From assembly GCA_036675475.1 (NCBI GenBank), contig JAKFEY010000027.1, positions 47,012-111,011 of the forward strand: 64,000 nt of DNA. The letters run 5' to 3'. The notes below the pieces were generated by a model. That model saw only the letters and a list, made by a program, of their open reading frames with translations. It did not search any database and was not told the origin of the DNA. Positions 433-12,227 of the stretch are shown one piece after another; the first letter of the stretch is position 1, and every line of letters starts with the position of its first letter. A program made the position numbers and the translations under genes. Origin of the DNA: Vicinamibacterales bacterium. Lineage in GTDB: Bacteria; Acidobacteriota; Vicinamibacteria; Vicinamibacterales; SCN-69-37.

Positions 433-1242
433 TTAGATCTTCCGGGCGATCAGAATCCAGACGTCAGCCCGGAGATCCCAGGGGCGGCCGTCGTAGTCGC
501 CGAGGGCCGCGTCCATGCGGAAACCGGCCCGCTCGATGCGGGCGGCCATCTCGGGCACGGGCAGGGTGCGGAAGGTGAGCGAAAACCGGCGGACCTCGCG
601 GGTGCGGCCCCGCCGCTCGGTGAACTCCTGGTCGAAAATCGTGAGCCGCTTGCGGCGATTCTGCCGGACGGACTCCACCAGCGTGACCACGGCGCCGTTG
701 GGCCGCCGGCCCTTCAAGCTCTGGTGGTTCGAGTACTCGGACCAGGCCGGCAGATCGGGCACGAGATCGACGGCGAGCTTGCCGCCCTTCTTCAGCACGC
801 GCGCGGCCTCGGCCAGCGCGGCGTCGAGGTCATCGTCGGAGGTCAGCGACTGAATGATGCCGTATGGCGCCATGACGGCGCCGAACGCGGACGAGCGGTA
901 CGGCAGAGCGCGGATGTCGCCGCGCGCGGCGCGCACCGGGACGCGCGCGCGCCGGAACCGCGCGCGGGCGCGGTCGAGCATGGCCTCGGATAAATCAATG
1001 CCGGCGACGAGGTGGCCGCCGCGGGCGCCGGGCGCGCCGGCCGCGCGCGCGGCCTCGACGTCGCGCGTCAGCGGCAGCAGCACGCGTCCGGTGCCGGTGC
1101 CGAGCTCGAGCGATCGCCCGGGGATGCCTGCGGCAAAGCGGCGCCAGAACGCGATGTCGCGCCGCCCGACGGTGCGTTGATTTTCCCAGTCGTAGAACGC
1201 GGCGTACTCGTCCCAGCCCTTGCTTCCGGTGGATGGCTTCAC
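433..1242 (-). CDS. Class I SAM-dependent methyltransferase (last gene of the lasso operon run)
   Basis: 269-aa ORF with motif [10 protein letters not shown] and post-[10 protein letters not shown]. It starts 17 nt downstream of the kinase gene on the same strand. Confidence 0.8.
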
Positions 1243-1258: not shown

Positions 1259-2152
1259 TTAAATGCAATCGCGCAGCACGGCGTCGACCGCGGCGTCGAG
1301 AAACGCCAGCCCGTCGGGATAACAGACGCGGCGCGACGGCACGGCGGCGGCCGCGCGGTTGGCGGCGTCGAACAGCCGCGCCGACTCGGCGCGATCACCC
1401 ACGTCCAGCCGAAACACGTGCGACAGCATCTCGATGCGCATGACGGCCGGCGACAGCGGCTGCACGCTGACGGCATCGCCGGTCTCGAGCAGATACAGGC
1501 GCGCGAGAGGCACGCGTCCGGACGCCAGCGCCACCGGCGCGCGCAGTTTGCCCGTCCCGATCGCCGTCAGCGGCGCGCCCGCGGGCGCCGCCTCGCGCAT
1601 GTCGTGCCACAGGCGCACGCCGTCGGCGGTCGGCCACACGGCGGGCGCGGCCTCATGCAGGTCGACGGCGAGCGCATCGTCGGCCACGAGCGCGAAGCCG
1701 CGGCGGCAGCAGGCGGCGGCCAGCGTGCTCTTGCCGGCGCCCGATTCTCCGATGAACGCCACCGCGCCGGCAGGCGTGTCGACGGCGCACGCGTGCAGGA
1801 CGAAGCGGCCGGTGCGGCTCAGCGCCAGCGGCAGCACCTGGTGCAGCAGCAGATGATCGAGCGTGGACGCGTCGAGGGCGGGCGCGGCCTGGAACGTGAC
1901 GGCGCGTCCATCGCGGGCCACGAGAGACGCGAGATCGGGCAGCGTCACGCGAAAGCCGGTGGCGGCGCGGCTGATGGACATCCAGACCGTGTCCGCGTCA
2001 CCCGTCCATTGCTGAATCGGTTCGTCTGACGCGGCCGGCACGTCGCCGCGGCGGATCACGATGTCGGGCGGGCCGGCGGCCGCGGGCAGGTGCGCGAAAT
2101 CGATGTCGCCGCCAACCGTGAGATCGGCGAACCGGCGCGCGCCGCGCATCAC
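1259..2152 (-). CDS. HprK-related (HPr kinase C-terminal domain-like) kinase, putative RiPP tailoring kinase
   Basis: 297 aa with P-loop FIGESGAGKSTLAAACCRRGFALVADD, resembling the HprK C-domain (GxSGxGKS...G..LVADD). Its start overlaps the upstream stop as ATGA (2149-2152). Confidence 0.75.
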   Translation of the reverse strand: MMRGARRFADLTVGGDIDFAHLPAAAGPPDIVIRRGDVPAASDEPIQQWTGDADTVWMSISRAATGFRVTLPDLASLVARDGRAVTFQAAPALDASTLDHLLLHQVLPLALSRTGRFVLHACAVDTPAGAVAFIGESGAGKSTLAAACCRRGFALVADDALAVDLHEAAPAVWPTADGVRLWHDMREAAPAGAPLTAIGTGKLRAPVALASGRVPLARLYLLETGDAVSVQPLSPAVMRIEMLSHVFRLDVGDRAESARLFDAANRAAAAVPSRRVCYPDGLAFLDAAVDAVLRDCI

Positions 2153-3279
2153 GCGCGGCCGTACACGGCCAGCACTTCGGCGACGAGCACCTCGGCGGCC
2201 TGCGCATCAGGAAACAGACCGGGATGCGTCGCGAACACCGCCGTCTCAATCTCGCGGATCGTGCGGCGCCCGTCGCACAGATCGAGCACGGTGCGGCGCG
2301 CCTCGCCGTGAATGGTGAGCGACGGCACGGCGTCCGGCCGCGTGCGCGCGATCGCCTCGCGGGTCGGCAGCATGCCCTTCCAGGTCGAATGCGACATCCG
2401 ATCCGATCCGTCGGCGCGCGCGATGTCCCAGGTGACGATGGAGTCGGCAGGCAGTACGCGGACAGCCACGCGCGCCTGCTCGCCCGGCGCGAGGTCGAGC
2501 GGGCGATCGAACGGCAGAAACGCGGGGCGCCGCTCGATGCGATCGGGCGCGTCCGGCGCGTTGGTCATCCACACGCCCGGCGCGAGTTCCGCATGAAAGA
2601 AGCCGCACAGGCCGTCGGCGCGGCACGCCGCGGTCGCGGTGAGCGTAAACGACGCCGACAACGGCATGCCGTCCCACGACGCGGCGTCGAAGGCGATCGG
2701 CGAGGCCGCGGCGGACAGCAGCGTGATGTGTTCGATGCGCGTCGGATAGCCGGTGTTGATCGCGATGGTTCGCGCCGCCGCGGTGTCGACGCCGCCTGGC
2801 CGCGTGCGCCAGAACTCGACGCGCGCGCGCATGACGGGCGAGGCCATCAGCGCGATATCGAGATGCACGGGACCAGGCACGATGCGCGCGCCCGGCTTGA
2901 GCAGGCGGCGCCGCGCATCGCCCGCGTACTCGAGCAGCCCCGCGTCGAATCCCATCCGGCCTATCTGATCGCACACGAGGACGTCCGCGGGTTCGGGCAG
3001 CTCGGCGCGCGTGGAATGCGCGGCGATGTGGGTGATGCGGTCGGCCGCGCCGGCGGCGCGGGCGATGGCGCGGGCGACTTCGATGATGCCGCCCTCGTCG
3101 ACGGCAAACACGCGCGCGGCGCCGGCGTCGAGCGCCATGAGGCCGAGGATGCCCGTGCCGCAGGCAAGGTCGAGCACGATATCGCCCGGCGCGACGGCGG
3201 CGTGAATGGCGCGGCGGAACGCGTCGAGCCGCGGCTGGTCGCTCAGATATTCACGGTGTTCGTCGAGGACGAGCGACAT
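2149..3279 (-). CDS. Protein arginine N-methyltransferase (PRMT)-fold SAM methyltransferase with a C-terminal PqqD/RRE-like extension
   Basis: 376 aa. The N-terminus HREYLSDQPRLDAFRRAI...VLDLACGTGILGLMALDAGAARVFAVD...ADVLVCDQIG...LLKPGARIVPG...RVEFW is colinear with type I PRMT motifs (Rossmann, THW-like region, beta-barrel). The last ~80 aa (SLTIHGEARRTVLDLCDGRRTIREIETAVFATHPGLFPDAQAAEVLVAEVLAVY) look like a PqqD winged helix. Confidence 0.7.
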   Translation of the reverse strand: MSLVLDEHREYLSDQPRLDAFRRAIHAAVAPGDIVLDLACGTGILGLMALDAGAARVFAVDEGGIIEVARAIARAAGAADRITHIAAHSTRAELPEPADVLVCDQIGRMGFDAGLLEYAGDARRRLLKPGARIVPGPVHLDIALMASPVMRARVEFWRTRPGGVDTAAARTIAINTGYPTRIEHITLLSAAASPIAFDAASWDGMPLSASFTLTATAACRADGLCGFFHAELAPGVWMTNAPDAPDRIERRPAFLPFDRPLDLAPGEQARVAVRVLPADSIVTWDIARADGSDRMSHSTWKGMLPTREAIARTRPDAVPSLTIHGEARRTVLDLCDGRRTIREIETAVFATHPGLFPDAQAAEVLVAEVLAVYGRA

Positions 3280-3297: not shown

Positions 3298-3471
3298 TTA
3301 CAGGCACCGCATCTTGCCGCCGGCTTCCGTGATGTTGCCCGACGATCCGCGCGTGAGCTTCGCGAGGTGGCCGTACTCCACCAGCGCGGGCTTCTCCCAG
3401 GCGCGCGCGGGCCTGGCGGTCTCGTCGCGCGGGCGGTCGGCGTCGTCCGGAGTGTGCGCCATGCCCCTCAT
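3298..3471 (-). CDS. Lasso peptide precursor (41-aa leader + 16-aa core GSSGNITEAGGKMRCL)
   Basis: Internal start of track ORF 3298..3522. It reads MRGMAHTPDDADRPRDETARPARAWEKPALVEYGHLAKLTR/GSSGNITEAGGKMRCL. The leader fits aromatic-xx-P-x-L-xxx-G-xxxxx-T-x with Thr at -2, and the core has Gly1 and Glu8. The ATG at 3469-3471 forms ATGA with the cyclase stop. An alternative ATG lies at 3460-3462. Confidence 0.8.
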   Translation of the reverse strand: MRGMAHTPDDADRPRDETARPARAWEKPALVEYGHLAKLTRGSSGNITEAGGKMRCL

Positions 3472-5270
3472 CTTGCCCCAAAGCGCGCGGCCAGCCAAGC
3501 GTCGACGCCGATGATCCGCCACAGCGCGAGCGCCGCCGCGCCGTCCTGTTCCCGGGCGCGGGCGGCAAGGGCGCCGACTTCGGCGGACACGACCCAGCCG
3601 CGCGCCGTCAGCGCCGGCACGGCGAGATGGCGCTGCACGTCCGGCGCGCGAAGCGCCTCCACCAGCAGGCGCGTGAAGTCGTTCTTCGTCACGCGCGCGG
3701 CGGTCTCGGGCGACAGCCGCGGCGCCATGGCCGCGCGCATGGCCGCGCGGTTGTGCGCCGGCGTGAGGTGCGCGTCCTGCGGCGTGGCGAACGCCAGCTC
3801 CACGAGGCGCCGGTCGTAGAACGGATGACGCAGCTCGACGCCCGACGCCACCGCCAGGCGGTCGAGTCGCTCCTTGGCAAACGCTTCTTCACCGCTGTCG
3901 AGACGCCATCGCATGCGGCGCCAGCTTTCGGCCGGCGCGCCGCGCGTGTCGGGGCGCCGGCGCAGCCGATCGCGCAGCTCGACGCGCGCGGCAAACGCCG
4001 GATCGATCCACGCGGGCAGCGGGGCGTGCCTGACGGCGCGCGCCGCGCGCCGCAGCGGCGCGGGCACGAGCGGCAGCAGGCCATCGCGCGCGAAGGATGG
4101 CCAGCTCCATGTCACTTCCTCGCCGGCGGCAGCCCCCGCGCGCTGCCATTGGCGCAGCGCGCCCAGCCGGCCGCGCCGCAGCAGGTCCGCCATGTGCGCC
4201 ATCTCGCCGCTCCACCACTGATCCCCGCCGAACCCCGTCAGCACAACACGGGCGCCCGCGGCCGCGAGCGCGGCATGCAGGCCCGTGAAGAGCGGCCGCC
4301 CCGAAGGCGAATCAGGCAGATCGGCGTCGGTGAGGATCGAGGCGAGATCGTGCGCCGGCGGATCGACAGGCGGCGTCACCGCGATCGGCTCGATCGACCA
4401 CCGGCGCGCCATCGCATCGATCCAGCGCGACTCGTCGGCCTCCGGCCAGGGAAAACGCAGCGCGCCGGCCATCGGCGCCGCCAATCCGTTCGCGCAGATC
4501 GTGCCCAGCACCGACGACGAATCGAGCCCGCCGCTCAGGTGCGTCCCGACCGTGGCACTGCCGGCGCACCGCGCGCGAACCGCCTCGTCGAACACCTCGC
4601 GAAATCGCGAGGCGTGATCGTCGAGCGATCCGCCGTGCATCTCGCGCGGCGGCTCCCAGTACCTCGAAACCGCAACGCCCTGCTCGCTCGCGACGAGCAT
4701 GTGGCCCGCCGGCACGCGGCGCACCGATAGAAACGGCGTGGCTTCCGCGTCGGCAATGTCGCCCCCCAGGGCTTCCGCGAGAAAGCCCTCGTCGGGTGAA
4801 TCGCCGGGCTCCACGAGCGCGCGCAGCTCCGACGCGCATCGCACGTGCGCGGTGCCGGCGCGGTAATAGAGCGGCCGGATGCCGAGCGCGTCGCGAATCG
4901 CCAGCAGGCGGCACGCGCGCGTGTCGAGGATCACGATCGCGAAGTCGCCGGCGAGGCGGGCCGCGAAGCCGTCGCCCCAGCGCGCGAACGCCTCGAGCGC
5001 GATCCCCGCGTCGGTCGCGTCGGCCGGCAGCCCGAGCTCGCGGCGGAGATCGGCCGCGTTGTCGAGCCGCAGATCCGCGGCGAGCAGCCCGCACGACGGA
5101 TGGCTGCCGAATGCGGGCGACGGACCCGCCGCGCCGATCACGCCGCCGGCGCCCGCGACAACCAGGCGATGACCGGCGCCCCGCTCGGGCATGCGCTCGA
5201 GCAGCGCCTTGACGGCAGCCTGCGCGGCGGCCGCATCGGCGGCGCCAAACACCGCGGCGACGGCATTCAT
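3468..5270 (-). CDS. Lasso peptide cyclase (asparagine synthetase-like, LasC type)
   Basis: Real start MNAVAAVFG at 5268-5270 inside track ORF 3468..5735; the upstream 155 aa are Arg-rich read-through over the B2 gene. It has the PP-loop SGGLDSS and lacks the N-terminal catalytic Cys2 of true AsnB. Confidence 0.85.
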   Translation of the reverse strand: MNAVAAVFGAADAAAAQAAVKALLERMPERGAGHRLVVAGAGGVIGAAGPSPAFGSHPSCGLLAADLRLDNAADLRRELGLPADATDAGIALEAFARWGDGFAARLAGDFAIVILDTRACRLLAIRDALGIRPLYYRAGTAHVRCASELRALVEPGDSPDEGFLAEALGGDIADAEATPFLSVRRVPAGHMLVASEQGVAVSRYWEPPREMHGGSLDDHASRFREVFDEAVRARCAGSATVGTHLSGGLDSSSVLGTICANGLAAPMAGALRFPWPEADESRWIDAMARRWSIEPIAVTPPVDPPAHDLASILTDADLPDSPSGRPLFTGLHAALAAAGARVVLTGFGGDQWWSGEMAHMADLLRRGRLGALRQWQRAGAAAGEEVTWSWPSFARDGLLPLVPAPLRRAARAVRHAPLPAWIDPAFAARVELRDRLRRRPDTRGAPAESWRRMRWRLDSGEEAFAKERLDRLAVASGVELRHPFYDRRLVELAFATPQDAHLTPAHNRAAMRAAMAPRLSPETAARVTKNDFTRLLVEALRAPDVQRHLAVPALTARGWVVSAEVGALAARAREQDGAAALALWRIIGVDAWLAARFGAR

Positions 5271-5677
5271 GCGGAGGTAACGAAGACCGGATGCGGCGCC
5301 GCGTCGATCGAACAGAGCGGCGCATAGGGGCGAACGGGATGCTGCCCGCTCAGCGCGAGGCTGCCATGCGCGAGCCAGGCATGGGCCGCGAACGCGCGCG
5401 GGCTTGCGCCGCCCGGCGCGACGCCGATCGTGACGCGCGCGGCCAGCCCTTCGCGCGCCAGCAGGTGCGCGCCGGCCAGCGCGCGCGTAAGACAGGTCGG
5501 CCGCGCGATCCACGCGGCGCGATTGAGCGCGCGCGCGATTTCCGCGGCGCGCGCCGGATCGAGCCGCGCGCCTGCAGGCGCCTGCAGCTGCCGCCCCGCA
5601 AGATCGCGGCACGACACCACGCGCAGCGCCAGCGCCGTCGTTACCAGCACGCGCAGCGCGCGAAAGGTCAGCATCAT
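5267..5677 (-). CDS. Lasso peptide biosynthesis B2 protein (transglutaminase-like leader peptidase)
   Basis: 136 aa with the family motifs PTCLTRALAG (Cys) and FAAHAWLAHG (His). It has 4-nt overlaps with both neighbours. Confidence 0.85.
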   Translation of the reverse strand: MMLTFRALRVLVTTALALRVVSCRDLAGRQLQAPAGARLDPARAAEIARALNRAAWIARPTCLTRALAGAHLLAREGLAARVTIGVAPGGASPRAFAAHAWLAHGSLALSGQHPVRPYAPLCSIDAAPHPVFVTSA

Positions 5678-5946
5678 GGGGCCGGCGCGACGATGAGGCC
5701 GCGCGCCGTGAGGTCGGATACGAAGGCGTCGACATCGGCTTCGATCACCTGACGATCGGCCGCGAACTCGCGCGCGAGCGTGGCGACCACGGCCTCGCGC
5801 GCCTCGCCGGCCTCGATCAACTGCCAGATGCGGGCAGCCGTTCCGGTCATGCCGAAGTACAAACTGCTCCGCAAATCGAGCACGAGCACCTCGCCATCGA
5901 GCTCGCGCGAAAGCGCATCGGGGCTCACCTGGTAGGGTCCGGCCAT
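5674..5946 (-). CDS. PqqD-family RiPP recognition element (lasso B1)
   Basis: 90 aa: LDGEVLVLDLRSSLYFGMTGTAARIWQLIEAGEAREAVVATLAREFAADRQVIEADVDAFVSDLTARGLI, a typical PqqD/RRE pattern. Confidence 0.85.
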   Translation of the reverse strand: MAGPYQVSPDALSRELDGEVLVLDLRSSLYFGMTGTAARIWQLIEAGEAREAVVATLAREFAADRQVIEADVDAFVSDLTARGLIVAPAP

Positions 5947-6110: not shown

Positions 6111-6710
6111 ATGACACGAGCTGACATCCGCCTCGTCGCCGTCGTCGCCATGTTCACGCTGGCCGCGCCGTCCCTCGACGCGCAGGTCAGTGTTGCCGGC
6201 CGTGCCGCCGCGCGTACGATTGCCACGCGCACGACGACGTCCGCCGCGCGCGCGGCCAGCGCGCTCAGCTCACTGGGCTCAGGCACGTCCACCACCGCCT
6301 CGCGCCTCACGTCCGTGATGGGATATCTGTGGGCGGGCGAAGGCATGCCGGTATCGAACGCCACCGTGCAGCTGCGCAACATCGTCACGGGCCAGATCGA
6401 ACAGGTGTCGTCGACGCTGCAGAACGGCGCGTTTGCGTTTCAGAACGTGAGCAGCGGCACGTACGCCATCGAGTACGTCACCGAGTCGGCCGGACGCGTG
6501 CTGGCCGTCGGCCAGGCGTTCAGTGTCGCGCCGGGTGAAACGGTCGCCACGTTCGTGCGCCTCGGATCGAAGCTCGCGCTGCTCGTCCCCGACCTGGCGT
6601 CGAATGCGGCCCAGGCCGTCGTCTCCAACGCGGCCCAGGCGGTCGCGTCGGGCATTGTCAGTGTTGCAGGCACCGCTGCCCCGGAACAGCCTGCAAGCCC
6701 GTTGCGCTAA
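6111..6710 (+). CDS. Secreted protein with carboxypeptidase-regulatory-like (CarboxypepD_reg) beta-sandwich
   Basis: Signal peptide MTRADIRLVAVVAMFTLAAPSLDAQ, then GYLWAGEGMPVSNATVQLRNIVTGQ...NGAFAFQNVSSGTYAIEYV, and a tandem SNAAQAV repeat near the C-terminus. Confidence 0.55.
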   Translation: MTRADIRLVAVVAMFTLAAPSLDAQVSVAGRAAARTIATRTTTSAARAASALSSLGSGTSTTASRLTSVMGYLWAGEGMPVSNATVQLRNIVTGQIEQVSSTLQNGAFAFQNVSSGTYAIEYVTESAGRVLAVGQAFSVAPGETVATFVRLGSKLALLVPDLASNAAQAVVSNAAQAVASGIVSVAGTAAPEQPASPLR

Positions 6711-6739
6711 ACGACCGTTTCAGGAAACACGGCGACAGC

Positions 6740-9070
6740 ATGCTTACGTCTCCCCACGAGCCCGCCGGCGACCGCGCGATGCCTCCGATGCCGCCCAGCA
6801 TGCCGATGGGCAGCGGCGACGGCGAGATCCACCTGCTCGATCGCCTCAGCGTCGTTTATCGCTATCGCCGCCTGGTCATTTCGATCGTGGTGCTCATCGT
6901 CGCCGGCAGCGTCGTGCAGACGTTCACGACCGTGCCGCGCTACAAGGCCACGGCGGTTGTGGAAATCGCGGAGGAGCGCCCGCTCTCGTCATCGCTGCGC
7001 GACATCGAGCAGCAGTTCTCGATTCAGGACCCCGAGGTGTACATGACGACGCAGGAGAACGTCCTGCGGAGCCGCGATCTCGCGCGCGTGGTCGTCAAGA
7101 AACTCGATCTGGCGCACCATCCGGAATTCGCGCCGGGCGCCGACGCGCCCTCCGGCCTTGCCGCGGCGTTCGCGTCGGTACGCGGCCGGATCACCCGTCC
7201 CCTGCGTGAACTGTTTCAGAGCAAGCCCCCTGTCTCCGCGACCGTGACCCCGGCGGCGCCATCCGATCGCGCAGGCGCGTCTGAGACGCCCGAAGAGGCG
7301 GCGCTGGTGACCGCGTTTCTCAACCGCCTGGTGATCGAGCGGCGTCCGCTGAGCCGGCATGTCAACGTGCAGTTCGACGCGCGTGACCCTCAGCTTGCCG
7401 CGCGCGCCGCGAACATGCTGGCCGAGGAGTACGTCGACAAGAATCTCGAGCTGAAGCGGACGGCGCTCGACAGCCGCATCAAGCTGTACGAGAGCGAAAT
7501 CCAGAACCAGAAGCTTCTGATCGACGGATATCAGACTGCGCTCTTCGCCTACCGGGCGAAGACCGGCACCGGCGACGTCAACGAGAACGTGCTGGGCACC
7601 ACCATCGCGCAGTTCGCCAGCGAAGAAAACAGGGCGGCCACCCTGGCCGTTCAGCACAAGGCTGTGTACGACCAGCTTCGGCCGGTGCTCGAGAACCCGG
7701 ACTTCGAGGTCACCGATCCCAAAATCATGTCGCTGCCGGCCATCGTGGGCGACGGCACGGTGAGCGCCCTGCAGGGGACCCTGCAGCGGCTGCAGAGCGA
7801 GCTCCAGGCGCAGCGGGTGCAGGGCCGCATGGACAACTACCCCGAGGTGCGCCGGATCAATCAGGACATCGAGCAGAACAAGCTGCAGCTCCGCAACCGC
7901 ATCCGCCTGCTCGCGCAGACGGCGCGCACGCAGTACGAAAGCGCGAACGCCAACGCGCAGAGCTATCGCAAGCTGCTCAACGAGACGCAGGCCAAGGCGG
8001 CGCAGGCGGGCATCGACGCCGTGCAGCCGGGATTCGTCGAGACCAGCCTGCGGGCGGCCCAGACCCTCTTGACGAGCCTGACGGCGGAGTTGCAGCAGAC
8101 CAAGGTCATGTCCAACAGCACGGAAAACAACGTGCGGACGATGGACCGGGCCGAGATACCGCCGGCGCCGTACACGCCGAACGTGCCGAACAATCTGGCG
8201 ATCGGCCTGATTGCGGGCCTCGTGCTCGCCGTGGGCGTGGCGTTCGCCCTCGATTATCTCGACGACACGATCAAGACGCCCGAAGACATCACCCGCAAGC
8301 TGCGCATTCCGTTCCTGGGGCTCGTGCCGGCGGTGCGCGGCGACAAGCAGCCGGTGTTGTCCGGCCCCGTCCCGCATGATTTCGGGGAAGCGTACCGCGC
8401 GCTGCGCACGTCGCTGGTCTTCACCAGCGGCGGCGAGAAGACGCGCGTGATCGCCGTGACGAGCGCGCAGCCGCTCGAAGGCAAGACGACCACCGCGTGC
8501 AACCTCGCGATGGTGCTCGCGTTCGGCGGATCGCGCGTGCTGCTGATGGACGCCGACCTGCGGCGGCCCGGCGTGCACAAGGCGCTGAAGTTGAACAACA
8601 CGGTGGGCCTGTCGCACCTGCTCGTGGGCCAGGCGCGGGTGCGCGAGGCGATTCAGCGCACCTCCGATCCGAACTTCTGCGTGATGACGGCCGGGCGCAC
8701 GCCGCCCAATCCGTCGGAGCTGCTGTCGTCCGAGCGCATGCGCCAGCTGGTAGAGAACCTGTCCGAGGGCCCGTTCGACTGGGTCATCATCGACACGCCT
8801 CCCGTGCTGGCCGTCACCGATGCCGTGGTGATCACGCCGATGGTGTCGGGCACCGTCTTCGTGCTTGGTGCCGAAATGACGCGCCGCCGGCTGGCCGAGC
8901 GCGCGGTACAGATGGTGCTGCAGACACGCCCGCGCGTGGTGGGTGCCGTGCTGAACCGCGTCAACTTCGACCGCAACAAGTATTACTATTCGCGCTACTA
9001 CGGCTATCAGTACAAGAGCTACTACGGGCAGCAGACCCGGGCAACCGAGCAGCCCTCATCCGAGGGCTGA
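6740..9070 (+). CDS. Polysaccharide co-polymerase / BY tyrosine autokinase (Wzc/GumC-like)
   Basis: It has an N-terminal Wzz-type TM plus coiled coil and a C-terminal P-loop with Walker A (LEGKTTTACNLA), A' (LLMDADLRRP) and B (VIIDTPPVLAVTDA). The terminal Tyr cluster is YYYSRYYGYQYKSYY. Confidence 0.85.
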   Translation: MLTSPHEPAGDRAMPPMPPSMPMGSGDGEIHLLDRLSVVYRYRRLVISIVVLIVAGSVVQTFTTVPRYKATAVVEIAEERPLSSSLRDIEQQFSIQDPEVYMTTQENVLRSRDLARVVVKKLDLAHHPEFAPGADAPSGLAAAFASVRGRITRPLRELFQSKPPVSATVTPAAPSDRAGASETPEEAALVTAFLNRLVIERRPLSRHVNVQFDARDPQLAARAANMLAEEYVDKNLELKRTALDSRIKLYESEIQNQKLLIDGYQTALFAYRAKTGTGDVNENVLGTTIAQFASEENRAATLAVQHKAVYDQLRPVLENPDFEVTDPKIMSLPAIVGDGTVSALQGTLQRLQSELQAQRVQGRMDNYPEVRRINQDIEQNKLQLRNRIRLLAQTARTQYESANANAQSYRKLLNETQAKAAQAGIDAVQPGFVETSLRAAQTLLTSLTAELQQTKVMSNSTENNVRTMDRAEIPPAPYTPNVPNNLAIGLIAGLVLAVGVAFALDYLDDTIKTPEDITRKLRIPFLGLVPAVRGDKQPVLSGPVPHDFGEAYRALRTSLVFTSGGEKTRVIAVTSAQPLEGKTTTACNLAMVLAFGGSRVLLMDADLRRPGVHKALKLNNTVGLSHLLVGQARVREAIQRTSDPNFCVMTAGRTPPNPSELLSSERMRQLVENLSEGPFDWVIIDTPPVLAVTDAVVITPMVSGTVFVLGAEMTRRRLAERAVQMVLQTRPRVVGAVLNRVNFDRNKYYYSRYYGYQYKSYYGQQTRATEQPSSEG

Positions 9071-9119
9071 CCGCAGCCGCGCGGCAGCCGCGGCGGCTGT
9101 CGGTGCGGTCGCGTGGGCG

Positions 9120-10388
9120 GTGCTCGCGTTCGGGGCCGTCTATCCCTGGGCCGCGCCCCCGCTGCTCGCGCTTGCGCTCGTCGCGCTGTGGCTCGCGCGC
9201 GCCACGCCGTCGCGGCGCGACCTGCTCGACGTCGCGCCGCTCGCCGCGGTCGCGATCATCGCGTTTCAGCTGATGCCGCTTCCCGTGTCCGTGCTCGACG
9301 TGCTCGCGCCCGAACACCGCGCCTATCGCGCGGCCATGTCGCTCGGCTACGACGCGCGCGCGTGGGCGCCGCTGTCGCTCGATCCGCGGGCCACGCGCAC
9401 GGGACTGATGCTGGCCGCGGCGGCCCTCGCGCTGTTTTCGGCCACGCGGCAGCTTGCGGAACACGAACGGCGGACGGCGGCGCGATGGATTGCCTGGCTC
9501 GCGGCGATCGTGTCACTCCTCGGCCTCGGCTCGGGGATGCTGTTTCCGGGCGGGCGCATTTACGGGTTCTGGCAGCCGCTCGAGCCGAGCGCGCAGCCGT
9601 TTGGCGTCATCATCAACCGCAATCACTTCGCGGCGTGGGCGATGATCGCCGCCGCGCTCGCGGCCGGCGGCCTGGCCACCCATGCGGCGCGCCGGCGCGC
9701 GCACACGCCGGCCGCGCGCGCCCTGGTCGAGGCGCTGAGCGACACACGCGCGCTGTGGCTGCTCTTCCCGGCCGTCGTCGCCATCGCCGCGGCTGTTGCC
9801 ACGGGATCGCGCTCGGCGCTTGCCGGACTGCTTGCGGCAGGGCTCGTCGCGGCGCTGCTGGTCAGAAGGCGCGCCGGACGCGCCGCGCGGCGCGTGGCGA
9901 TTGCCGCGGCGGCCCTGTGCCTGATCGCCGCGTTCAACTGGTCGCGGCCCGACGTCCTCATGTCGCGCCTCGATCGAACGGGCGGCGAGCTCGGGCTGCG
10001 TTCCGCGATCTGGCAGGAGTCGATCGGCATCGCGCAGCGGTACCCGATCACGGGCGTGGGCGCCGGCGCCTTCCCCGCCGCCATGGCGCACTATCAGCGC
10101 GCCACGCGCGACGTGTTCTTCAATCACGCGCACAACCAGTACCTCGAGATCGCCGCCGAAGGCGGCCTGCTGCTGGGCCTGCCGCTGCTGCTGTTTGCGG
10201 GCGCGCTCGCCTGGCGCATCGCGCGCCGGCTGCGGGCGCCCGCCGGCAGCGCCTTCTGGCTCCGCGCCGGCGCCGCGGCGGCGCTCGCCGGCCTGGCCGT
10301 GCTGTGTATCTGGGAATCGCCGTTCCGCACGCCGGCCACGCTCATGCTGGCGGCCGTGGCCGCGGGGCTTGCGGCGGGGCGCGACTGA
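9120..10388 (+). CDS. O-antigen ligase/polymerase family (Wzy_C) membrane protein
   Basis: 422-aa polytopic protein with the family motif FFNHAHNQYLEIAAEGGLLLGLPLLLF. Confidence 0.8.
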   Translation: MLAFGAVYPWAAPPLLALALVALWLARATPSRRDLLDVAPLAAVAIIAFQLMPLPVSVLDVLAPEHRAYRAAMSLGYDARAWAPLSLDPRATRTGLMLAAAALALFSATRQLAEHERRTAARWIAWLAAIVSLLGLGSGMLFPGGRIYGFWQPLEPSAQPFGVIINRNHFAAWAMIAAALAAGGLATHAARRRAHTPAARALVEALSDTRALWLLFPAVVAIAAAVATGSRSALAGLLAAGLVAALLVRRRAGRAARRVAIAAAALCLIAAFNWSRPDVLMSRLDRTGGELGLRSAIWQESIGIAQRYPITGVGAGAFPAAMAHYQRATRDVFFNHAHNQYLEIAAEGGLLLGLPLLLFAGALAWRIARRLRAPAGSAFWLRAGAAAALAGLAVLCIWESPFRTPATLMLAAVAAGLAAGRD

Positions 10389-11131
10389 TGGCGCTGCGGG
10401 TGGCCTTCGATCTCGACGGGGTCATCGCCGACTTCCGCTCGGCGTTCGAGCGCGAGGCGCGCCGTCACGTCGCCGGCGTGCTCGATCCCGACCGCGCCGA
10501 CAGCGACACGTTCTCGAACGCCGAGATGCGGCGCATCTGGGCGCGCATCCAGCGCACGCCGAACTGGTGGACGACGGTGAAGCCGTACGAACCGGCCGAG
10601 ATCGCGCGCCTGTACGAGATCGCGCGGCGCAGGCGCTGGGAAGTCGTCTTCATGACGAAACGGCCGGTCACGGCCGGTGAGCCCGTGCAGTTCCAGACGC
10701 AGCACTGGCTCGAGCAGCACGGCTTTCACTATCCCGCGGTCGTCACCGTTCCAGGCTCACGCGGCGAGCTGGCCAACGCCCTGCGCCTCGACATCGTCGT
10801 CGACGATCAGCTTTATAACTGCCTCGATGTCGTGAGCGGATCGCATGCGAAGGCGCTGCTGCTGGCGCGCGATCGCAGCGACGATGTGGAGCGCCAGGCC
10901 GCGTCGCGCGGGATCGGCGTGGTGCGGACGCTGGCGGAGGCCGTTGACGCGCTAACGGGCCTGGAGACGCACCAGACCGAGCGCCAGGGGCGCCTGCAGC
11001 GATTGAGCGACTGGCTCGTGCCGAAATCCGACGCCGCGCTGCCGTCGCAGCCGGATCCGGGGCGGGTCACGCTCAGCGATCCTGACGGGACGGATCCGGA
11101 TCGGGATCCGCAGGGCGGGACGGGCGTCTGA
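10388..11131 (+). CDS. HAD-superfamily hydrolase, 5'(3')-deoxyribonucleotidase (NT5C)-like
   Basis: Real start MALRVAFDLDGVIADF (DxDGV nucleophile motif) at 10388, which overlaps the upstream stop (TGATG). The 425 aa upstream in track ORF 9113..11131 are an out-of-frame read of the Wzy_C gene. Confidence 0.65.
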   Translation: MALRVAFDLDGVIADFRSAFEREARRHVAGVLDPDRADSDTFSNAEMRRIWARIQRTPNWWTTVKPYEPAEIARLYEIARRRRWEVVFMTKRPVTAGEPVQFQTQHWLEQHGFHYPAVVTVPGSRGELANALRLDIVVDDQLYNCLDVVSGSHAKALLLARDRSDDVERQAASRGIGVVRTLAEAVDALTGLETHQTERQGRLQRLSDWLVPKSDAALPSQPDPGRVTLSDPDGTDPDRDPQGGTGV

Positions 11132-12227
11132 ACCAGCCGGGCGCGCCGCCGGCCAGCCGTCGCAGGTACAGCAGGGGCAACGGCAGGCGCGAGCGTGCGT
11201 CACTCCGCACGAACGCCGCGTCGGGCAGAAAGGTTTCGCGCAGGAGCGCCGCACGATCGCGCCAGCCGAGGGCGCGCCAGTCGAGCGCGAAGTCGTCGCC
11301 ACGGGAGCGATCCTCCCTCGTGAACATCAACAGATCCGACGGCTGCGCGGCCAGACGCGCAACGGCATCGGCGACGCCGGCCGGCAGCGTCTCGCCCGAT
11401 CGCGCCGCGGCGCCGCTCACTTCGTACGCCACCAGCGGTCCCACCCCCCAATGGGCCGCTCGCTCGAGCAGCTGCGGCACGCGCCGTTCGGCATGCGCGG
11501 CCAGACGCAGCATGTCGACGTCCCAGATCAGGCGCCGCTCGCCAGGATGATGCACCAGCCGGTGCACGGCGGCCGTGATGATCGCGTCCACGTCATCGGG
11601 CCCGCGCGCCGCGCGATGCAGGCCCGGGAGCGGCACGCTTCGCGCCGCGACATCCGCGAAGGACATGCGCGAGGCCAGCGCGGGCGCGTTCACGACGCCG
11701 GTGTGGAGATCGACGGTGCATTCGCCGTCGGCCACCGGCCGGCGGTAACTCTGCTGCCGCACGCGCACCCGGCCCGGCTTTTTCACGTCCTTGACGAAGC
11801 CGGCGCCAAGCAGCGCGCGTTCGACGATGCCGGCGTGGCGGTGCTCGACGAGCAGGTCCCAGTCGAGGCGCATGCGATCGGCCGGCGACCCGTACAGGCT
11901 GTACGCGAGCGCCGCGCCTTTGAAGAACAGTACCGGCACGTTCACGTGATCGAGCGCGCCGGCGACGGCGTGACGCTGCAGGGCTTCATACAACGTCCAG
12001 CGGCGCAACGCCCCCTGCATGGCGGCGACGTGCGCTCCAAGTCGAACCTCCGCTACATCCGGCGGCTCGACGCGCAGAAGTCCCCGCAGCGCAAACGGCA
12101 CCACCTGCTGCTCTTCGGCAGCCGTGACGAGATCGCCTGGATCGCAGGGCGCGATCTCCGCGGGGGTGATCTGATGGGGATGAAAGAGAAGGCCGGCGAG
12201 TATGCGCGCGACGGGCATGCCGCCCAC
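11073..12227 (-). CDS. Nucleotidyltransferase family protein (uncharacterised NTP_transf_5-like)
   Basis: 384 aa. VPVLFFKGAALAYSLYGSPADRMRLDWDLLVEHRH resembles the NTP_transf_5 core (K-G..L....Y......R...D.DLLV). Confidence 0.6.
   Translation of the reverse strand: MGGMPVARILAGLLFHPHQITPAEIAPCDPGDLVTAAEEQQVVPFALRGLLRVEPPDVAEVRLGAHVAAMQGALRRWTLYEALQRHAVAGALDHVNVPVLFFKGAALAYSLYGSPADRMRLDWDLLVEHRHAGIVERALLGAGFVKDVKKPGRVRVRQQSYRRPVADGECTVDLHTGVVNAPALASRMSFADVAARSVPLPGLHRAARGPDDVDAIITAAVHRLVHHPGERRLIWDVDMLRLAAHAERRVPQLLERAAHWGVGPLVAYEVSGAAARSGETLPAGVADAVARLAAQPSDLLMFTREDRSRGDDFALDWRALGWRDRAALLRETFLPDAAFVRSDARSRLPLPLLYLRRLAGGAPGWFRRPSRPADPDPDPSRQDR

Follow-up and report, generated by a model that had tools for sequence, protein, structure and literature searches.

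Lasso peptides are valued scaffolds, and new tailoring enzymes extend the chemistry available for their engineering. In protein arginine methyltransferases (PRMTs), a double-E loop carries two invariant glutamates that hold the guanidinium of the substrate, and in RREs the third strand of the beta-sheet pairs with the leader peptide. Among the closest described lasso systems, StspM methylates the C-terminal carboxyl of the linear precursor (PMC8498205), and B1 boosts a tailoring kinase that acts on Ser3 of the BsfA ring (PMC10368454). A search of the literature on lasso and other RiPP peptides, PRMT, arginine methyltransferase, PrmA and Acidobacteria found no description of an enzyme such as the one considered here, in line with the statement of a preliminary description of this DNA that PRMT-type modification is not known in any RiPP.

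The window, i.e. the whole stretch of 64,000 nucleotides that was analysed, carries a split-B lasso cluster, with a YxxPxL...T(-2) leader, a Gly1...Glu8 core, B1, B2 and the cyclase C (Table 1). The same precursor, B1, B2 and C set is found in four related loci (L001-L004), the methyltransferase adjoining the lasso genes. The precursor leader (...WEKPALVEYGHLAKLTR) is followed by the core GSSGNITEAGGKMRCL, encoded at 3301-3348, which does hold the Lys12 and Arg14 pointed out in the preliminary description; the standalone B1 that it placed in the operon is there too. The precursor and cyclase genes overlap at the precursor ATG (3471) and the cyclase stop, a second possible ATG lying at 3462, and the cyclase, the start of which is inferred from L001, also matches the NCBIfam lasso cyclase family (2.8e-73, under the cut-off). 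Translational overlap recurs downstream, where the methyltransferase stop codon and the kinase start (GTG 2152 or ATG 2149) share nucleotides. The second methyltransferase, with daptide_MTase as its best NCBIfam match (1.4e-17, far under the cut-off), is accessory, as it is found in only five of the other loci. Polysaccharide-export genes stand between the nucleotidyltransferase and the lasso genes; to judge from its sequence relatives, this nucleotidyltransferase is probably part of the same lasso pathway.

Table 1. Features of the lasso cluster, in window coordinates.
Feature	Positions	Strand	Evidence
Second, ordinary class I SAM methyltransferase	433..1242	minus	Pfam Methyltransf_25 (8e-18)
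HPr-kinase-like lasso kinase	1259..2152	minus	Pfam Hpr_kinase_C (2e-6) and NCBIfam HprK_rel_A (1.5e-8), both under cut-offs
Methyltransferase gene (376 aa + stop), intact	2149-3279	minus	ORF; start MSLVLDEHREYLSD agrees with family consensus
Family-specific all-helix tail, residues 303-376	2152..2373	minus	Conservation, predicted secondary structure, weak PqqD similarity
PRMT-type core, residues 1-302	2374..3279	minus	PDB sequence and profile searches, AlphaFold model, Foldseek, conservation
Lasso precursor	3298..3471	minus	NCBIfam lasso_leader_L3 (E=5.4e-6), over cut-off
Lasso cyclase C (Asn-synthetase-like, 600 aa)	3468..5270	minus	Pfam Asn_synthase (2.7e-33)
Lasso leader peptidase B2	5267..5677	minus	Pfam Transglut_core3 (2.2e-15); NCBIfam lasso_biosyn_B2 (3.4e-15), over cut-off
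Standalone RRE B1 (PqqD family)	5674..5946	minus	Pfam PqqD (1.9e-17)
NTP_transf_5-type nucleotidyltransferase	11073..12227	minus	phmmer link to PF14907-carrying genes in L003 and L004

The methyltransferase keeps the entire PRMT scaffold, with a Rossmann SAM-binding domain, a helical arm (residues 148-174) and a beta-barrel. It belongs to a family of more than 848 full-length homologues, retrieved in the initial homology search, and its Pfam and NCBIfam matches are of the PrmA and PRMT types only. The preliminary description had read the first ~295 residues as colinear with type I PRMTs, and rightly so: residues ~7-300 align with them at ~22% identity, the top matches of the protein alone among PDB sequences are all PRMT6, PRMT3, PRMT2, CARM1 or PRMT1 (E=2e-19), and the family profile reaches PRMTs at E=5.7e-42. 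An alignment-based AlphaFold model of the full-length protein (pLDDT 94.9, pTM 0.85) is placed by Foldseek in the PRMT fold, with target-normalised TM scores of 0.74-0.81 over ~318 columns against PRMT6, CARM1, PRMT3 and PRMT1. Helices at 148-158 and 167-174, together with strands within 127-298, indicate that the barrel and the inserted helical dimerisation arm are both present in this model. A model built from the single sequence had a pLDDT of 41, and all its matches against the PDB were noise (E>0.1). The SAM-binding motifs I, post-I, II and III align to PRMT6 as VLDLACGTGILG, AVDEGG, ADVLVCDQIG and LKPGARIVP; the motif pairs listed in the preliminary description recur in the PRMT alignments, including VCDQIG against SEWMG and EFW at the F/H-W-W position. 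Asp37, Gly41, Gly43, Gly46 and Arg17 are invariant in 82 sequences. Arg17 stands where PRMTs bind the carboxylate of SAM, and His8, Asp14 and Arg17 align with His45, Asp51 and Arg54 of PRMT1. The N-terminal YFxxY helix, which covers the cofactor in PRMTs, is absent, the protein beginning seven residues ahead of the His8 position, and the bacterial relatives likewise do without it.

It is in the catalytic pocket that the enzyme departs from its relatives. In the profile alignment to PRMT6, the first catalytic Glu of the double-E loop is replaced by Asp104 and the second by Ala113, both invariant, and the THW loop aligns to Arg247-Ile248-Glu249-Arg250-Arg251, where Arg247 and Arg250 pair with Thr and Trp. 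The pocket of the window protein thus reads Asp104-Gln105, Asp112-Ala113 and Arg247-Ile-Glu-Arg250-Arg251; position 112 varies between Glu, Asp and Asn. An acidic residue in the pocket, as with invariant Asp104, would be ill-suited to a carboxylate or a phosphate acceptor and rather suited to an amine. The lasso clade has R-I-x-R-R in place of THW, with an invariant Arg250; that Arg250 and Arg251 line the pocket would follow from their equivalence to the PRMT THW loop. A second lasso-linked subclade has lost the loop arginines and has gained an Arg two residues past the conserved Asp. These changes in the double-E and THW loops are confined to the lasso-linked clade, and tail-less homologues outside lasso clusters retain S-E-[TW]-x-G...[DH]-E and T-[HS]-W.

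The C-terminal tail calls for more caution. The preliminary description saw a PqqD winged helix in the last ~80 residues, and hence a second RRE in the operon. An extra domain is indeed there, and its helices appear to follow the PqqD pattern, with the motif L-x-L-C-D-G-x-R-T-x-x-E-I; the winged helix itself did not stand, as beta-strands are lacking and Pfam thresholds are missed. Four helices (307-312, 323-334, 341-351 and 359-373; pLDDT 80-97) and no beta-strand are predicted in the AlphaFold model, and Pro319, Arg328, Asp336, Glu368, Val369 and Tyr373 are invariant. Pfam PqqD (PF05402) has no match in the window tail at E<=10 and only weak ones in 6 of the 31 family tails (best E=0.011), four of which 31 show weak matches to the PKMT C-terminal winged-helix domain (best E=0.07). 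Searched against PDB sequences, the tail profile retrieved designed helical proteins only (E>0.3). With hhalign, the tail resembles 45 B1 proteins weakly (P=0.004-0.009, about 0.01; probability 4%), at scores (18.5-18.9) above those of all 100 block-shuffled controls (maximum 17.5), and the alignment opens a 16-column gap precisely across PqqD strands 2-3. The resemblance is limited to the helical half, clearest for helices 1-2 and extending at most over helices 1-3. In the reverse direction, the tail HMM did not recover B1 proteins among all ORFs of 84 loci, the best PqqD-like ORF scoring E=0.41 (in L055). Among 1.8 billion representatives the tail profile occurs solely at the C-terminus of this methyltransferase family, or in fragments, with no evidence of a mobile domain; one match, in a eukaryote-like repeat protein (P0193), was put down to chance. 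That the tail is the rest of the PRMT barrel is ruled out: it is helical, Foldseek fits whole PRMT cores inside residues 1-302, and tail-less homologues finish at a Q/H-S-T motif. As modelled, the tail falls short of a full RRE, the leader-binding beta-sheet being missing.

A lasso cyclase is found in the flank of 36 of 42 tail-bearing homologues versus 3 of 26 tail-less ones (Fisher P=1e-9, a value that ignores phylogeny and is inflated by shared ancestry); the tail is nearly confined to RiPP contexts, and this survey upholds the earlier assignment of the enzyme to the lasso cluster. Three tail-bearing homologues near which no cyclase was found (L031, L049, L055) retain the canonical Glu pair. 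At least 36 lasso clusters with the methyltransferase are spread over Acidobacteriota, Nitrospirota, Rokubacteriota, Binatota, Myxococcota, Actinomycetota and Gammaproteobacteria. Homologous precursors were identified in 27 other loci, in 17 loci the methyltransferase start follows the precursor stop at a distance of 4-110 nt, and in most lasso-clade loci the next gene after the methyltransferase is the kinase, which is present in every adequately covered one. Precursor, methyltransferase and kinase thus form a conserved module, and the idea that the methyltransferase is an unrelated neighbour of lasso genes is ruled out by a synteny kept across phyla.

The cognate cores, compared in 28 non-redundant precursors encoded beside methyltransferase homologues, constrain what the enzyme may modify. 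Arg is missing in 18 of them, Lys in 12 and both in 7 (among them L001, beside a 72%-identical enzyme, and L005), which leaves 21 with Arg or Lys. The ring-forming Asp/Glu is the sole conserved core side chain, so that universal acceptors would be limited to the termini, the backbone or groups made by the kinase. All 28 have Ser or Thr within positions 1-7, and 20 end in Cys-Leu (19 of the 24 beside the main enzyme type), a strongly conserved end that might point to a thiol instead. Since the guanidinium-binding residues are lost and most cognate cores lack Arg, the acceptor would not be an Arg or Lys side chain; on these sequence patterns, the methyltransferase almost certainly acts on something other than arginine.

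We consider it very probable that the enzyme is a dedicated lasso tailoring methyltransferase, and not a conserved Arg/Lys methylase. The best explanation overall, to which we give close to an even chance, is that of a tailoring enzyme which descends from PRMT-like proteins and has taken on a new acceptor, perhaps an anionic oxygen. Deduced from conservation patterns and residue changes alone, an acceptor of this anionic kind comes just short of probable; the C-terminal carboxylate would be our first choice, by analogy and quite tentatively, and a phosphate installed by the kinase, the main alternative and second choice, is unlikely. A bacterial PRMT-like ancestor would have been repurposed in the lasso pathway, where its descendant, like other lasso tailoring enzymes, would work on the linear, leader-bearing precursor. 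The leader would probably be held by the standalone B1, the helical tail serving as a docking or substrate-positioning module and not as a self-sufficient RRE. The new pocket arginines would hold the anionic oxygen of the acceptor, and methylation of the C-terminal carboxylate would turn the peptide end, usually -Cys-Leu, into a methyl ester. In the phosphate variant, the translationally coupled kinase would probably phosphorylate ring Ser3 (a ring Ser/Thr in general), and the methyltransferase would then make a methyl phosphodiester, for example capping polyphosphorylation. The overlap of the two genes, the presence of the kinase in every adequately covered lasso-clade locus, a Ser/Thr available in every core and the fit of a phosphate to the pocket arginines all favour it, as does the example of BsfK, which modifies Ser3 in a near-identical ring by phosphorylation and is capable of polyphosphorylating it (PMC10368454). 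However, many clusters have a nucleotidyltransferase, which in pseudomycoidin decorates the same phosphate (PMC8498205), and gene adjacency may merely reflect inheritance as one operon. A further objection is that, to our knowledge, phosphoserine methylation has no precedent in peptides.

The preliminary description had proposed that the fused tail is a leader-binding RRE and that the PRMT domain N-methylates core Arg14 or Lys12. The PRMT fold, both residues in the window core, the retention of Asp104 and of an acidic residue 112, the weak PqqD-like similarity in the expected register and the Arg or Lys of three quarters of the cores (21/28) are as this model expects; yet the enzyme is conserved beside cores with neither residue, as in L001, and 18 of 28 have no Arg, while, solely in lasso-linked clades, the THW loop has been replaced and the second Glu has turned into an invariant Ala. 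With a tail that has no beta-strands and goes unmatched by Pfam PqqD in the window protein, the proposal becomes improbable, and it is abandoned as a conserved function. S-methylation of the penultimate Cys, to which the frequent Cys-Leu end lends some appeal and for which the arginines could bind the adjacent C-terminal carboxylate, is still less convincing, because such a Cys is missing from five cores (L007, L020, L022, L023, L027) whose neighbouring enzymes have unchanged pocket residues. Another peptide position (backbone amide, Ser/Thr hydroxyl, Asn/Gln amide) or a non-peptide target, be it a protein of the pathway or something in the cell that is methylated for self-protection, agrees with cores devoid of a conserved side chain, with the protein methyltransferases that PRMT relatives are and with the three tail-bearing homologues outside lasso clusters. 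It too is unlikely, since the gene directly follows the precursor in 17 loci, as is typical of tailoring enzymes, and since those three homologues, with their canonical Glu pair, make a different functional type. Finally, the loss of both PRMT catalytic signatures might suggest a catalytically dead scaffold linking B1, kinase and precursor; this is hardly credible when the SAM-binding residues are invariant in 82 sequences and the remodelled Asp104, Ala113 and Arg250 are themselves invariant.

Should an anionic acceptor prove true, the enzyme would be the first of PRMT fold not to methylate arginine, evolved in lasso clusters into an O-methyltransferase of anionic groups. Phosphoserine methyl-capping, which would furnish a ribosomal peptide with a methyl phosphodiester while a degenerate PqqD-like tail docks the enzyme on the B1-leader complex, would be more unusual, and we think it unlikely. 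The enzyme also provides a clean natural experiment in the repurposing of the PRMT active site. The methyltransferase family is large and entirely uncharacterised, in a widespread and unstudied type of lasso cluster, marked by a conserved Met-rich, Cys-Leu C-terminus, by the vicinity of exopolysaccharide genes and by its occurrence in uncultivated soil and water bacteria. The database labels 'ribosomal protein L11 methyltransferase' and 'type I PRMT' are probably wrong on substrate.

Set against known systems, the enzyme shares with type I PRMTs (PRMT1, PRMT3, PRMT6, CARM1) the whole-chain fold, from a Rossmann domain that bears motifs I, post-I, II and III to the helical arm and beta-barrel. 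It differs from them by a double-E loop that reads Asp...(Glu/Asp/Asn)-Ala, by Arg-Ile-x-Arg-Arg for THW, by the missing YFxxY helix, by its 74-residue helical tail and by its place in a bacterial RiPP cluster in which most cognate peptides lack Arg. Its nearest sequence relatives outside the clade, tail-less bacterial PRMT-like proteins such as those of Thermoanaerobaculia, Gammaproteobacteria and Myxococcota (L033-L048, L059), share its core up to the Q/H-S-T motif, where they end, but the Glu pair and T-[HS]-W are retained in them, they carry no tail and, in 20 of 26 cases, have no lasso gene nearby. As in PqqD-family RREs (lasso B1 and fused RREs), the three main helices of the tail appear PqqD-like in length and loops and bear the motif L-x-L-x-D-G-x-R/T-T-x-x-E-I; unlike them, the tail has no beta1-beta3 sheet, stays below significance in Pfam and the PDB, and is not mobile. 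The lassomycin/StspM O-methyltransferase and the PIMT-type aspartimide-forming enzymes similarly tailor lasso precursors in a SAM-dependent manner (PMC8498205, PMC13001092), whereas their methyltransferase family is an unrelated one that lacks the PRMT barrel, and the present clusters, found in Acidobacteriota, Nitrospirota and others, are of the kinase/nucleotidyltransferase type; the likeness to StspM-type C-terminal O-methyltransferases is proposed as a functional analogy only. The clusters of phosphorylated lasso peptides (paeninodin, pseudomycoidin and Bradymonas bsf) have no PRMT-fold enzyme and their cores do not end in Cys-Leu, but they share B1, B2, C, the HPr-kinase-like kinase, the nucleotidyltransferase and the YxxPxL leader, and the BsfA ring, GTSGNEVD, resembles the window ring GSSGNITE.

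Within its first 6 kb, the window holds on the minus strand a compact split-B lasso-peptide operon, which abuts an exopolysaccharide neighbourhood (see the list below). In the precursor, a leader ending in ...WEKPALVEYGHLAKLTR, with Thr(-2), is followed by the core GSSGNITEAGGKMRCL (codons 3301-3348), with a Gly1-Glu8 ring; Lys12 and Arg14, which the preliminary description had read in this core, are both found in the translation. The gene of the 376-aa putative methyltransferase (the enzyme) is translationally coupled to that of the HPr-kinase-like protein. As for the second methyltransferase, its top NCBIfam match is a daptide methyltransferase (1.4e-17; 63.9 bits, far under the cut-off of 175), and only five other loci have a counterpart (L001, L006, L020, L044, L051; L numbers denote homologue loci from other genomes).

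Genes of the lasso operon and of the adjoining neighbourhood (window positions)
Feature	Position	Strand	Remark
Second, ordinary class I SAM methyltransferase	433-1242	-	End of operon
HPr-kinase-like gene	1259-2152	-	Start overlaps stop of the 376-aa ORF
Enzyme, 376 aa	2149-3279	-	19 nt beyond precursor
Lasso precursor	3298-3471	-	ATG overlaps cyclase stop
Lasso cyclase C, Asn-synthetase-like	3468-5270	-	
B2, leader peptidase	5267-5677	-	
B1, standalone PqqD-family RRE	5674-5946	-	Pfam E=1.9e-17
CarboxypepD_reg-like gene	6111-6710		Exopolysaccharide neighbourhood
Wzz/GNVR tyrosine-kinase gene	6740-9070		Exopolysaccharide neighbourhood
Wzy_C gene	9120-10388		Exopolysaccharide neighbourhood
NTP_transf_5 gene	11073-12227	-	

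The first homology search returned more than 848 matches, nearly all of about 376-395 aa, from Vicinamibacterales and other Acidobacteriota, Binataceae and others, labelled in databases as 'L11 methyltransferase' or 'type I PRMT'. Loci L001-L004 share a set of PqqD, B2, cyclase, small ORF, enzyme, HPrK/ScmC-like kinase and often NTP_transf_5, adjoined by Wzz/Wzy polysaccharide genes; the exopolysaccharide neighbourhood as found at 6111-12227 also occurs in L001, L003 and L004, which belong to different lineages. The preliminary description had proposed counting how often such enzymes neighbour lasso genes. Among 80 loci from a one-genome-per-species scan, annotated with phmmer, a lasso cyclase flanks 36 of the 42 homologues bearing the C-terminal tail (residues 303-376), and three further ones, on truncated contigs, lie near other lasso genes, while no lasso gene is near 20 of the 26 tail-less ones (Fisher P=1e-9, a statistic that ignores phylogeny). 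In 17 loci, 4-110 nt separate the end of the precursor gene from the enzyme gene; in most loci the kinase gene comes directly after the latter. The enzyme, with its PRMT fold and intact cofactor motifs, is embedded in a precursor-methyltransferase-kinase module; beyond fold and synteny, what it does we infer. Three tail-bearing homologues have no nearby cyclase (L031, L049, L055). In L055 (positions 6800-7105 of the locus) the homologue has the canonical Glu pair and lies 900 nt downstream of a standalone PqqD gene, with a cyclase absent from the surrounding 8 kb. In L045 (positions 488-2125 of the locus) two standalone PqqD genes directly follow the tail-less homologue, several lasso loci also have two (L007, L014, L050, L052, L053), and L021, a Gammaproteobacteria MAG, carries tandem tail-bearing paralogues (761-2041 and 1998-3179).

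Pfam and NCBIfam yield generic matches only (PrmA 1e-6, Methyltransf_25). In PDB sequences, all top matches are protein arginine methyltransferases (PRMT6 at 2e-19, residues 7-171), and with a profile built from 82 homologues the match to PRMT6 extends to residues 7-278, at 5.7e-42. The alignment-based structure model is confident (pLDDT 94.9, pTM 0.85), and its best 50 Foldseek matches in the PDB are all PRMT6, CARM1, PRMT3 or PRMT1, with about 318 aligned columns, target-normalised TM of 0.74-0.81 and identity of 20-22%. By these matches, residues 1-302 contain the whole PRMT core, with its Rossmann domain, its helical arm and its barrel. The PRMT fold first proposed for this part from motif correspondences, visible in the alignments, is thereby upheld.

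The tail is modelled as four helices (307-312, 323-334, 341-351, 359-373) and no strand, which rules it out as part of the barrel. Tail-less bacterial homologues stop exactly at the Q/H-S-T motif preceding its position, and it is strongly conserved, with Pro319, Arg328, Asp336, Glu368, Val369 and Tyr373 invariant in 82 sequences. Among 1.8 billion representative proteins searched with its profile, it turns up solely in gene fragments or at the C-terminal end of proteins about 375-390 aa long. P0193, a eukaryote-like repeat protein of 2076 aa from the representative-protein search, contains fifteen matches to positions 25-52 of the tail profile (RMLLALLDGTKTISQVKETI) and was set aside as a chance or repeat-driven match. 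Judged by sequence, the tail is a family-specific extension and not a mobile RRE. The PqqD/RRE tail of the preliminary description survives as an extra domain with weakly PqqD-like helices, but it matches neither the profile of PqqD nor a winged-helix architecture. The window tail has no match to Pfam PqqD at E<=10, a model matched by 6 of 31 family tails (best E=0.011), while the Pfam PKMT winged-helix model is matched by four of the 31; the tail profile finds nothing in PDB sequences. Against the 45 B1 proteins of related loci, hhalign gives P=0.004-0.009 and a probability of 4%, with a score above all 100 block-shuffled controls; it pairs the tail's VLxLCDGxRTxxEIE with the helix 1-helix 2 region of PqqD (IWxLL...), and the extended alignment is interrupted by a gap of 16 columns that coincides exactly with strands 2-3 of PqqD. 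At most, the tail is a PqqD-like helical subdomain without wing and, wingless as modelled, it would be unable to bind a leader canonically through strand-3 pairing.

Of the two catalytic Glu of PRMT6, the profile alignment puts Asp104 in place of the first and Ala113, which is invariant, in place of the second, position 112 being Glu, Asp or Asn in the family, and pairs Arg247/Arg250 with Thr/Trp of the THW loop. Zhang and Cheng are said to have described in 2003 that Glu144 and Glu153 of PRMT1 hold the substrate guanidinium, the THW loop lining the same pocket. Across all loci aligned with hmmalign, S-E-[TW]-x-G...[DH]-E and T-[HS]-W are retained by those tail-less homologues that lie outside lasso clusters; in the main lasso clade the corresponding motifs read D-Q-I-G...[EDN]-A-G and R-I-x-R-R. 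Another lasso-linked subclade (L044, L050, L051, L053, L062, L065, L066, L068) shows S-D-L-R-G and I-Y-G-Q: the arginines of the loop are gone, and an Arg has appeared two positions beyond the Asp. The precursors of this subclade terminate in ...KTKTA, ...IQKTA or ...GDRT, not Cys-Leu. With the guanidinium clamp lost and pocket arginines gained, the acceptor probably differs from an arginine guanidinium and is plausibly anionic. The invariance of cofactor-binding Asp37, Gly41, Gly43, Gly46 and Arg17 (82 sequences) makes the enzyme probably active, rather than a dead scaffold.

Which atom would receive the methyl group can be weighed against 28 non-redundant precursors that share a conserved leader, P-x-L-x-x-Y-G-x-x-x-x-L-T-x. 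Eighteen cores lack Arg, twelve lack Lys and seven lack both, for example GASGTAGEAGGMMVACL in L001, beside a 72%-identical enzyme, and GGQGTGADSGTTMMMMCL in L005. As far as core sequences go, these counts exclude conserved Arg/Lys N-methylation as the family function, so that the earlier proposal for Arg14/Lys12 is not borne out at that level; a narrower rival would methylate Arg or Lys in the cores that have them. The ring-forming Asp/Glu (position 8 or 9) is the sole conserved core side chain, and Ser or Thr occurs within positions 1-7 in all 28. A Cys thiol is another candidate: 20 of the 28 cores end in Cys-Leu, and five without this end lie beside enzymes whose pocket residues are identical. 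The Cys-Leu cores (that of the window; L001, L003-L006, L008-L014, L016, L018, L019, L025, L032, L036, L056) usually have a Met-rich stretch before it, as in GMRMGMGMRCL or TTMMMMCL; such a C-terminus is not known to us from any lasso class described so far.

We favour a scheme in which the enzyme would tailor the linear precursor, B1 presenting the leader to it and the tail docking or positioning the complex. B1 is known to speed BsfK, a kinase that tailors a lasso peptide by phosphorylating Ser3 in the BsfA ring GTSGNEVD (PMC10368454). The acceptor of first choice would be the C-terminal carboxylate, since it is the sole universal free functional group and has a functional precedent in lassomycin/StspM (PMC8498205). 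A phosphate placed by the coupled kinase comes second: the window ring GSSGNITE closely resembles that of BsfA, which makes Ser3 a likely phosphorylation site by analogy. Against both anionic acceptors, Asp104 stays invariant. Further rivals would have other peptide atoms methylated, or a protein as the substrate.

In role, the enzyme is akin to lasso tailoring methyltransferases; judged by its Pfam and NCBIfam matches, it probably falls outside the PIMT and StspM-type families, the likeness to StspM being functional only. It has the fold features of PRMTs but departs from three that define them (double-E loop, THW loop, YFxxY helix), and its tail differs from the PqqD family in profile and architecture. 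Full-text searches of the open literature turned up no paper that ties a PRMT-type enzyme to lasso peptides or RiPPs, and we rate this one as a putative tailoring methyltransferase for lasso peptides whose fold would be new among RiPP enzymes.
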